A stretch of 15,849 nucleotides of DNA from Verrucomicrobiota bacterium (GCA_008932965.1 WBXG01000038.1:1-15849), one strand, 5' to 3'. Shown: positions 1,327 through 2,395, counted from the stretch's first letter. Made by a program: numbers and translations. The notes: generated by a model from the sequence alone, not told the origin.

Positions 1327-1788
1327 TTAGCCACTAACATCTCTCCATGTACCTTCACTGTTGCTCTGGTTATTATTATTTAGATCTTCTTTATTATGAG
1401 GATCAAATGATTGACTGTCATCTCTCGATTCTACGCTATCTTGAGAAGCACTGGAGTCATCATCAGCTACCGGGCTGCTCAGCGAATCTGTACTGTTGTT
1501 CTGGTTATGAGGTTTTAGATTTTCTTTAGTAAGAGGAGATGGAGTTTTTGGATATAAATAATTCGTAAATGACTTGAGTCCGACTGCATTGAATGCATGT
1601 CCGGGAGCATTCACAATCGAATTATAAATCTTCCTAAGTGCAAAATTACCTTTACTACCTAGATCTAATTTAAATTCCGTTCCATGAAATGTTAGTTTTT
1701 CATTACTAGTTTCTTCTGTATTCACCGTACCCTTAAAAGGATTTATTGCACTTGCCGCACTTGATATTTTTGATCCGATATTATTCAT
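1327..1788 (-). CDS. Hypothetical small protein with Ser/Asp/Asn-rich disordered C-terminus; candidate type III secretion substrate
   Basis: Track ORF of 153 aa lying 88 nt downstream of, and co-directional with, the T3S chaperone gene. The first 24 residues have no acidic residue and are Ser-rich (MNNIGSKISSAASAINPFKGTVNT). The C-terminal half is low complexity. Confidence 0.6.
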   Translation of the reverse strand: MNNIGSKISSAASAINPFKGTVNTEETSNEKLTFHGTEFKLDLGSKGNFALRKIYNSIVNAPGHAFNAVGLKSFTNYLYPKTPSPLTKENLKPHNQNNSTDSLSSPVADDDSSASQDSVESRDDSQSFDPHNKEDLNNNNQSNSEGTWRDVSG

Positions 1789-1876
1789 AAAATTAATAAG
1801 TTAGTTTGGTTTTTAGTTCTCAGTGTCGCAGGAAAAGTGATTAAAAAAATGCTTGGTTCAGGATGTACCATGAAGC

Positions 1877-2395
1877 TTAAGCATAGCTTCCTATTTGTGT
1901 AGGAGTGGGAGCGGAGACAGGTTGATTATCAGCTGGCTTAACTGAGGAAGCTGGAGTCGATTGAGGAGCCCCCGGTGGTTTTTCATCGAGGTTGGTCCCA
2001 TCCACGATTCGTTTGTTCCAAAAGAGAGCCACATCACTGAACCCTTTGAGGAGGTCTTGGAATCGCAGGTACTCCATTCCTTCGAGTTTTTCTTGGTAAC
2101 ACATGAAGACGCTAAGGGTGGCAGGATCGACTCCTAGGGTCGCTCCACCAGTTCCAACCCAGAGAAGATTTGCCTCGAGTAGCTCTGAGTAGAACTTTTC
2201 TGTTTGGTGTGGGACCAACGTTGCAACAATGGCAGAGAAAATAAGAGCCCCTGTCTCTTCGTTTGCTTCCAAATCGATGGTGACACGATCATCAAAACGA
2301 AGGGAGCAAAGACCACCATCATTAGGCTTAAGTTCTGGTAATCCTACGCTTTTTCCGAGTTCTTGGAGCAGGGTATTAAAGTGTTCAATAGACAT
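1877..2395 (-). CDS. Type III secretion class I chaperone (CesT/Tir-chaperone, SycE-like fold family) with Pro/Ser/Ala-rich C-terminal tail
   Basis: The ~135-aa acidic core follows the family pattern: FNTLLQELGKSVGLPELKPNDGGLCSLRFDDRVTIDLE...ALIFSAIVATL...EKFYSELLEANLLW...GATLGVDP...VFMCYQ...LEGMEYLRFQDLLKGFSDVALFWNKRI. Confidence 0.75.
   Translation of the reverse strand: MSIEHFNTLLQELGKSVGLPELKPNDGGLCSLRFDDRVTIDLEANEETGALIFSAIVATLVPHQTEKFYSELLEANLLWVGTGGATLGVDPATLSVFMCYQEKLEGMEYLRFQDLLKGFSDVALFWNKRIVDGTNLDEKPPGAPQSTPASSVKPADNQPVSAPTPTQIGSYA

Follow-up and report, generated by a model that had tools for sequence, protein, structure and literature searches.

The stretch of DNA considered here (15,849 nucleotides (nt) of a Verrucomicrobiota bacterium, GCA_008932965.1, WBXG01000038.1:1-15849; hereafter the window) comes from a freshwater population of Chthoniobacterales (Verrucomicrobiota) and carries a small group of genes that we relate to type III secretion (T3S). 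Two open reading frames (ORFs) of the minus strand, present as described in an initial annotation made from the sequence alone, encode proteins of 172 amino acids (aa; 1877-2395) and 153 aa (1327-1788) and lie 88 nt apart (1789-1876). Across an intergenic region of 237 nt (2396-2632), a gene for a 494-aa protein runs divergently on the plus strand (2633-4117), and beyond it lies a minus-strand gene for an orphan protein of 489 aa (4237-5706; 472 aa if the start is at 5655). CesT-family chaperones with adjacent effectors are a textbook arrangement in T3S, and the initial annotation had read the 172-aa protein as a T3S chaperone followed by its cognate substrate, the 153-aa protein. Overall, the T3S-chaperone interpretation is supported by our analysis, with one amendment, namely that the 494-aa protein is the better-supported substrate.

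Sequence profiles and a predicted structure identify the 172-aa protein as a full-length class I T3S chaperone of the CesT family. It is small and acidic (18.7 kDa, isoelectric point 4.48), as is characteristic of the class (about 15-20 kDa), and contains all of the class I motifs that had been quoted for it (LLQELGKSVGLPEL, FDDRVTIDLE and LLEANLLW). The expected Pfam family, PF05932 (CesT), is matched with 69.4 bits (cut-off 22; E 3.8e-19), whereby residues 8-126 align to positions 1-118 of the 119 profile positions. The best sequence matches in the PDB, obtained with phmmer, are ExsC (3KXY; E 3.3e-4) and CesT. An AlphaFold2 (AF2) model based on 30 homologues likewise displays the class I chaperone fold, with a core of residues 1-135 (1991-2395, minus strand) modelled at pLDDT >90. 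Its helices (H) and strands (E), namely H2-17, E29-34, E38-45, E50-59, H62-78, E86-89, E95-103 and H109-135, follow the order alpha-beta-beta-beta-alpha-beta-beta-alpha, as class I chaperones require. When this model was compared with the PDB using Foldseek, the top 23 matches were all T3S class I chaperones, among them ExsC (TMt 0.83-0.87), SicP (0.83), VecA, SchA, SycH, CesT, SpcU and SycE, with E values from 4.5e-10 to 1e-5 for ExsC, VecA, SicP, SchA, SycH and CesT.

The chaperone has 80 detected homologues, several of which carry the NCBI name "type III secretion system chaperone", and those at ≥50% identity that belong to a named taxon all stem from metagenome-assembled genomes (MAGs) of Verrucomicrobia or Chthoniobacterales. 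A ratio of non-synonymous to synonymous substitution rates (dN/dS) of 0.11 against the closest orthologue (locus L012) indicates purifying selection on the gene. Distant relatives (33-35% identity) are located inside sct clusters of gammaproteobacterial MAGs, where they adjoin a SopB/IpgD-like phosphatase effector, and an effector-chaperone function is therefore supported for the subfamily as a whole.

Beyond its core the chaperone possesses a tail of 37 residues (136-172, LDEKPPGAPQSTPASSVKPADNQPVSAPTPTQIGSYA; 1880-1990, minus strand), rich in Pro, Ser and Ala and terminating in a conserved G-S-Y-A, of which residues 138-171 are modelled as disordered (pLDDT <50). A Pro/Ser/Ala tail of about 35 residues had been singled out as unusual; the tail is real, but it is not peculiar to this one protein, as about 44 homologues have one. 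The linker of these homologues comprises 30-40 residues, mostly Pro, Ser, Ala and Thr, with a conserved length and a sequence free to vary; it ends in -YA in 31 of them, in -FA in 4 and in -LA in 2, mostly in the form G[STN]YA. Proteobacterial relatives terminate in [RK][VA], and a paralogous chaperone clade bears a Lys-rich tail in place of the Pro/Ser/Ala tail. Judged by this pattern, the tail resembles a short linear motif on a tether. The C-terminal tyrosines of CesT, a chaperone that serves several effectors, are functionally important, and flagellar chaperones need a tyrosine for docking to FlhA; the tail may bear a resemblance to either.

The divergently oriented 494-aa protein consists of an internal tandem duplication. 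Its two halves align to each other at E 2e-10 (self-BLASTP), share the pattern AP..F.G....LG...EN+..L..F..AL..KYG..IA.FAFP and contain one candidate SptP-type module each (residues 27-140, 2711-3052, and residues 262-372, 3416-3748), which resembles the SicP-binding domain (PF09119) of Salmonella SptP. PF09119 is matched independently by 11 of the 19 members of the 494-aa family (best E 2.8e-7) and is the only family found repeatedly among them. BLASTP aligns the window protein to the crystallised SptP fragment 35-130 at E 2e-5, and a profile of 19 modules compared with the same fragment by hhalign gives a probability of 76% (E 2.2e-5) over SptP 40-112. SptP is recovered from the PDB only with the module-level profile, and weakly; on single measures, the link to SptP is a weak one. 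In the AF2 model (pLDDT 69) a unit made up of a beta-hairpin, short helices and a long helical hairpin occurs twice. The model matches VepA of the VecA complex locally (120 columns, 22% identity, probability 1.0, E 0.32), while a global Foldseek search with it returned coiled-coil noise only and no significant PDB match. The protein also shows a match of 26 bits, far below the cut-off of 160, to the secreted regulator BspR; this match coincides in position with the SptP-like module.

In seven genomes a member of the 494-aa family stands divergent to and upstream of the chaperone gene, also where the outer flanks are entirely different, and the dN/dS of 0.18 points to purifying selection. Only eight relatives were retrieved by HMMER among 1.84 billion representatives; the family is lineage-restricted, and these relatives offer no functional domain from which to infer a role. 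Single-module paralogues of about 290 aa adjoin the two-module gene in L015, L016, L017 and L019. Mobile-element genes also occur at the module: a transposase gene of the PD-(D/E)XK family (PF12784) separates the 494-aa homologue from the chaperone in L015 (8967-9893) and L017 (5498-6400), and in L019 (11869-12819) the module is closely followed by a Y1 transposase gene, which fits the differing flanks of the islet. From domain content and conservation, the 494-aa protein is a better-supported and more conserved partner than the 153-aa protein, and we regard it, with fairly good confidence, as the most probable cargo of the chaperone.

The 153-aa protein, a candidate T3S substrate by position, N-terminal conservation and composition, falls into two parts, an N-terminal region (residues 1-82; 1543-1788) conserved among homologues and a C-terminal half (1327-1542) of low complexity. 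The composition agrees with what had been described: the first 24 residues contain no acidic residue and many Ser, Thr and Asn, as is typical of T3S signals, and residues 86-153 include 14 Ser, 10 Asp and 10 Asn out of 68. No match was found in Pfam, NCBIfam or the PDB. Homologues directly 3' of the chaperone gene are present in L012 (62% identity over the N-terminal 82 aa), L013 (43%), L017 and L019 (both about 40% over 43-48 aa), and by this comparison the ORF represents a real, conserved gene slot. In this group conservation is confined to the N-terminal 50-80 residues, with the shared blocks INPFxGTVN, [LF]RK[IAV]Y[ND]S[IV] and APGHA, and the C-termini differ; a conserved N-terminus combined with a variable C-terminus is typical of effectors. 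The slot 3' of the chaperone is filled in the majority of orthologous loci, where the gap measures 33-88 nt. What it holds is hypervariable: the proteins have 153 to 362 aa and fall into three or more unrelated groups. Large orphan ORFs likewise follow paralogous chaperones of these genomes. The expected order of a chaperone followed by its cognate substrate is thus plausible for the 153-aa protein, which is, however, not the best-supported partner, and sequence features incline us only slightly towards regarding it as a substrate of the chaperone.

For the 489-aa protein neither a family match nor a homologue in any related locus was found, and it appears to be unique to the population of the window. 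The first 25 residues of its 472-aa form (no acidic residue; 12 Ser, Thr, Asn or Gln) resemble a T3S signal, and a hydrophobic stretch of about 65 residues (about 211-275; about 4882-5076, minus strand), evident from hydropathy, is rich in Gly and Ala and resembles chlamydial Inc proteins or translocators. It is possible that this protein is a membrane-inserting substrate, and it may be a third cargo of the chaperone. Both larger neighbours (2633-4117 and 4237-5655 or 5706) had been called orphans, and indeed neither has a convincing family beyond the weak SicP-binding match.

No T3S system (T3SS) apparatus gene lies near the chaperone gene, as had been annotated: a tblastn search with 14 Yersinia Ysc proteins revealed no sct homologue in the window. 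We therefore turn to related genomes for the apparatus. All seven window proteins tested by tblastn are matched on a JGI metagenome contig, six at 100% and AroK at 99.5%. Among species-representative genomes, the closest chaperone orthologue (92% identity) belongs to MAG Tobar2m-G38 (GCA_021733705.1), and others occur in MAGs from lakes and groundwater. The injectisome was reached by way of a SycD-like TPR chaperone near a chaperone paralogue, which led to a family of needle genes present in 59 clusters. In GCA_049314455.1, whose chaperone orthologue is 70% identical, the needle genes (two of them SctF) stand beside SctJ, SctL, SctN, SctO and SctP, and its SctN shares 63% identity with Yersinia YscN along 406 residues. 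GCA_021733705.1 has SctF and the same needle operon, and an SctF identical to its own adjoins SctJ/L/N/O/P on an ENA contig. Both genomes also encode SycD-like class II chaperones, which, like the injectisome genes, lie on other contigs. The expectation that sct genes exist elsewhere in the genome is hence borne out by proxy, in the nearest sequenced relatives; a genome devoid of a T3SS, which would speak against the chaperone interpretation, is not what we find, because close relatives carry sct genes, again by proxy only. The chaperone is an orphan only in position, because the lineage encodes an injectisome elsewhere.

Some further features of these genomes may be recorded here. The needle operon loci (L049, 8750-12163; L050, 9286-12049) are unusual in what they contain. 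In one MAG two SctF paralogues stand in tandem; to these are added a protein of 180 aa that weakly matches a needle or inner-rod protein, a Glyco_transf_34-like gene immediately upstream, and a second TPR chaperone, after which come orphan proteins of 350-725 aa that could be translocators. A second clade of CesT-family proteins (about 148 aa, with a Lys-rich tail) is always encoded between glnD and an MFS sugar-transporter gene, and in its loci L010/L032 and L028-L031 no orphan ORF stands beside it; each genome therefore has at least two or three class I chaperone paralogues. Within the Verrucomicrobiota, a T3SS is known in Verrucomicrobium spinosum (PMC3681970), and our literature search on T3SS in Chthoniobacterales and Verrucomicrobiota found nothing specific beyond that species.

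Co-transcription of the chaperone and 153-aa genes is plausible because no minus-strand terminator is predicted in the spacer between them, although the terminator scan, like the promoter scan, performed at chance level. The divergent region 2396-2632 presumably carries the promoters of both genes that flank it; promoter-like matches in the window did not exceed chance level, and no upstream box kept across the orthologous loci was found. The compact islet of about 4.4 kb with orphan neighbours that had been proposed stands as far as the orphans are concerned, but it is compositionally unremarkable (GC 0.409 against 0.418 in the rest of the window), and on this basis recent horizontal transfer of the islet was rejected.

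Further outwards, a pseudopilin operon with GspI/GspJ-like genes is present as annotated, but it is cut by the window edge, past which it runs on, and a biological truncation, which had also been claimed, is not shown. Its two pseudopilin-like ORFs (6-491 and 442-1194, plus strand) overlap by 50 nt, and in both the prepilin N-methylation motif sits 43-50 residues inside the ORF as listed, so that translation probably begins further in than the mechanical ORF calls suggest. At the other end (11497-15074, plus strand), a gene of the SulP/STAS sulfate-permease family (12414-14141) is flanked on either side by an ABC permease gene (BPD_transp_1; 11497-12417 and 14202-15074), and its start overlaps the end of the first by 4 nt. 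Neither Rfam families nor tRNA genes were found in the window.

These data are best accommodated, with a probability of roughly three in four, by a class I chaperone that is the centre of a rearranging effector islet and serves the distant injectisome of freshwater Chthoniobacterales. By analogy with the solved complexes SicP-SptP, ExsC-ExsE and VecA-VepA, a dimer of the chaperone would hold newly made substrates by their extended N-terminal chaperone-binding region, keep the bound cargo competent for secretion and pass it on to the ATPase SctN and the sorting platform of the distant injectisome. The chaperone gene would be the fixed centre of the islet, with the 494-aa protein as the most likely cognate substrate on its divergent side and, on the other side, a fast-evolving and probably co-transcribed slot, filled here by the 153-aa protein, whose conserved N-terminal part of about 80 residues would combine a secretion signal with a presumed binding segment.

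Comparison with characterised systems shows where this model follows precedent and where it departs from it. One such system is SicP-SptP of Salmonella pathogenicity island 1 (PDB 1JYO), with which our locus shares the chaperone fold (1jyo_A, TMt 0.83), the adjoining partner genes and the resemblance of the 494-aa modules to the SicP-binding domain of SptP (40-112), which PF09119 detects marginally in the window protein. SicP is also the best NCBIfam match of the chaperone, although a score of 24.9 bits against the cut-off of 99 of the equivalog NF011857 means that it is not a SicP orthologue. Unlike in SicP-SptP, the two genes are here divergent instead of co-oriented, the module is duplicated with its second copy far from the N-terminus, the 494-aa protein lacks GAP and tyrosine phosphatase domains in Pfam and NCBIfam and is predicted to be helical or coiled-coil, and the locus lies outside any T3SS island. 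VecA of Vibrio parahaemolyticus T3SS1 (PDB 9UX0) is a top structural match of the chaperone (24% identity), and the VepA chain of the same complex locally matches the 494-aa model, yet the E value of that match is only 0.32 and VepA is not matched at the sequence level. CesT of enteropathogenic and enterohaemorrhagic Escherichia coli, a multi-cargo chaperone, belongs to the same Pfam family and is likewise extended C-terminally beyond its core; it differs in its low identity to our chaperone (about 15-19%) and in that the tail here is a disordered Pro/Ser/Ala linker of about 35 residues ending in G-x-Y-A, with no evidence for phosphorylation or CsrA binding. A CesT-like multi-cargo role would nevertheless fit the rearranging islet and the orphan ORFs that follow paralogous chaperones.

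The Chlamydiae, with for example Slc1 and Mcsc, offer a parallel in genome organisation. T3S chaperone and effector genes are scattered away from the apparatus genes in this group, which like the Verrucomicrobiota belongs to the PVC superphylum and has several CesT paralogues per genome, and one of the neighbours described here has an Inc-like hydrophobic stretch. The parallel has its limits, as the lineage's SctN is close to YscN, so that the apparatus may differ from that of Chlamydiae, and as our organism is known from freshwater metagenomes only.

Several observations weigh against the proposed model. On the side of the apparatus, the T3SS is that of close relatives only and not of the window's own genome, and a metagenome scan for SctN found close relatives and no contig from the window's own sample. 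On the side of the 494-aa protein, its PF09119 score of 25.1 bits only just reaches the cut-off of 25, neither the full-length protein nor its profile of seven sequences matches anything relevant in the PDB, and the full-length alignment to SptP attains a probability of only 9.6% (hhalign). On the side of the 153-aa protein, L018 and L024 have no orphan gene downstream of the chaperone orthologue, the protein has no detectable chaperone-binding domain, and its dN/dS of 0.93 (79 aligned N-terminal codons, window 1543-1788 against L012 1124-1360) bespeaks either diversifying selection or very relaxed constraint. Class IB substrates carry a CCBD motif, (LMIF)xxx(IV)xx(IV)xN, at about residues 25-45 (PMC3280449). 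In the 153-aa protein a similar segment, L51-R-K-I-Y55-N-S-I58-V-N60, fits this motif at positions 1, 8 and 10 but departs from it in having Tyr at position 5 and in lying at residues 51-60, and a strict motif was hence rejected (PMC3280449).

A different view is that the chaperone is dedicated to the 494-aa protein alone, in the manner of a class IA chaperone such as SicP with SptP, and that the 153-aa ORF is an unrelated gene rapidly drifting or decaying in its slot. A chaperone-binding domain can be recognised in the 494-aa family only, its dN/dS of 0.18 contrasts with 0.93 for the 153-aa protein, and the slot holds unrelated genes, or none, across genomes. Against this view, an ORF is kept in the slot in at least five genomes, with blocks (INPFxGTVN, FALRKIYNSI and APGHA) that are identical within its N-terminal 80 residues; conserved N-termini with variable C-termini are also what effectors typically display, and the gap between the chaperone and 153-aa genes is short and without a terminator. 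We hold this dedicated pairing to be unlikely.

The gene order could also be read differently. In Pseudomonas, the gene directly 3' of exsC is exsE, whose product is small, disordered and secreted, and the 172-aa and 153-aa proteins might accordingly form a partner-switching regulator like ExsC-ExsE (P. aeruginosa, PDB 3KXY), in which secretion of the 153-aa protein by the active injectisome would free the chaperone for another binding partner and so switch on the expression of T3SS genes. ExsC is the closest solved relative of the chaperone (26-27% identity), its best PDB match by sequence as well as by structure (TMt up to 0.87), the chaperone gene is here similarly followed by one for a small, probably disordered protein in the position of exsE, and the weak similarity of the 494-aa protein to BspR could be taken as a further hint of regulation. 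Yet the BspR similarity falls on the SptP-like region and far below its cut-off, and ExsC is about as close to the chaperone as are SicP and VecA, both of which are ordinary effector chaperones. The 153-aa protein is twice as long as ExsE and, with 153-362 aa among genomes, hypervariable in a way that is not expected of a conserved regulator; a phmmer search with it against all PDB chains, including 3KXY, yielded nothing relevant at E <= 10 and no relation to ExsE. Moreover, neither an ExsD-like anti-activator nor an AraC-type activator was seen in the window or within ±10 kb of the orthologous loci, and a regulatory switch of this kind seems to us improbable. Least probable by far is a chaperone-like fold with a non-secretory role, as in the YbjN/AmyR family, which shares the T3S chaperone fold (PMC5398634) and appears with YbjN (6vu7) at Foldseek rank 24, since the sequence profile is that of CesT and not of YbjN, the family co-occurs with injectisome genes and has distant relatives inside sct clusters, and a neighbour carries a SicP-binding-like domain.

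Returning to the class I chaperone at the centre of an effector islet, a more far-reaching and rather doubtful extension is conceivable, in which the tether of about 35 residues with its G-x-Y-A end would mark an undescribed subclass of class I chaperones, the terminal aromatic motif being a docking or switching element and the chaperone a hub for several fast-evolving, lineage-specific effectors. If this were so, the partner in docking or switching could be the export gate, the ATPase or a kinase, and planktonic freshwater Verrucomicrobia would use an injectisome against protists or algae.

The finding leaves the understanding of T3S chaperones unchanged, and homologues are already named as such by NCBI. 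Points of modest interest are the SptP-like module and its duplication, the hypervariable downstream slot, which may mark effectors under host-driven selection, and the conserved motif of the tail. The chaperone could be used as bait, and the 494-aa family would carry an SptP-like chaperone-binding module across phyla. For the freshwater Chthoniobacterales, a lineage known from metagenomes only, the locus adds a clear module of a chaperone with candidate effectors, and the injectisome that this lineage encodes implies an interaction with eukaryotic hosts or prey.

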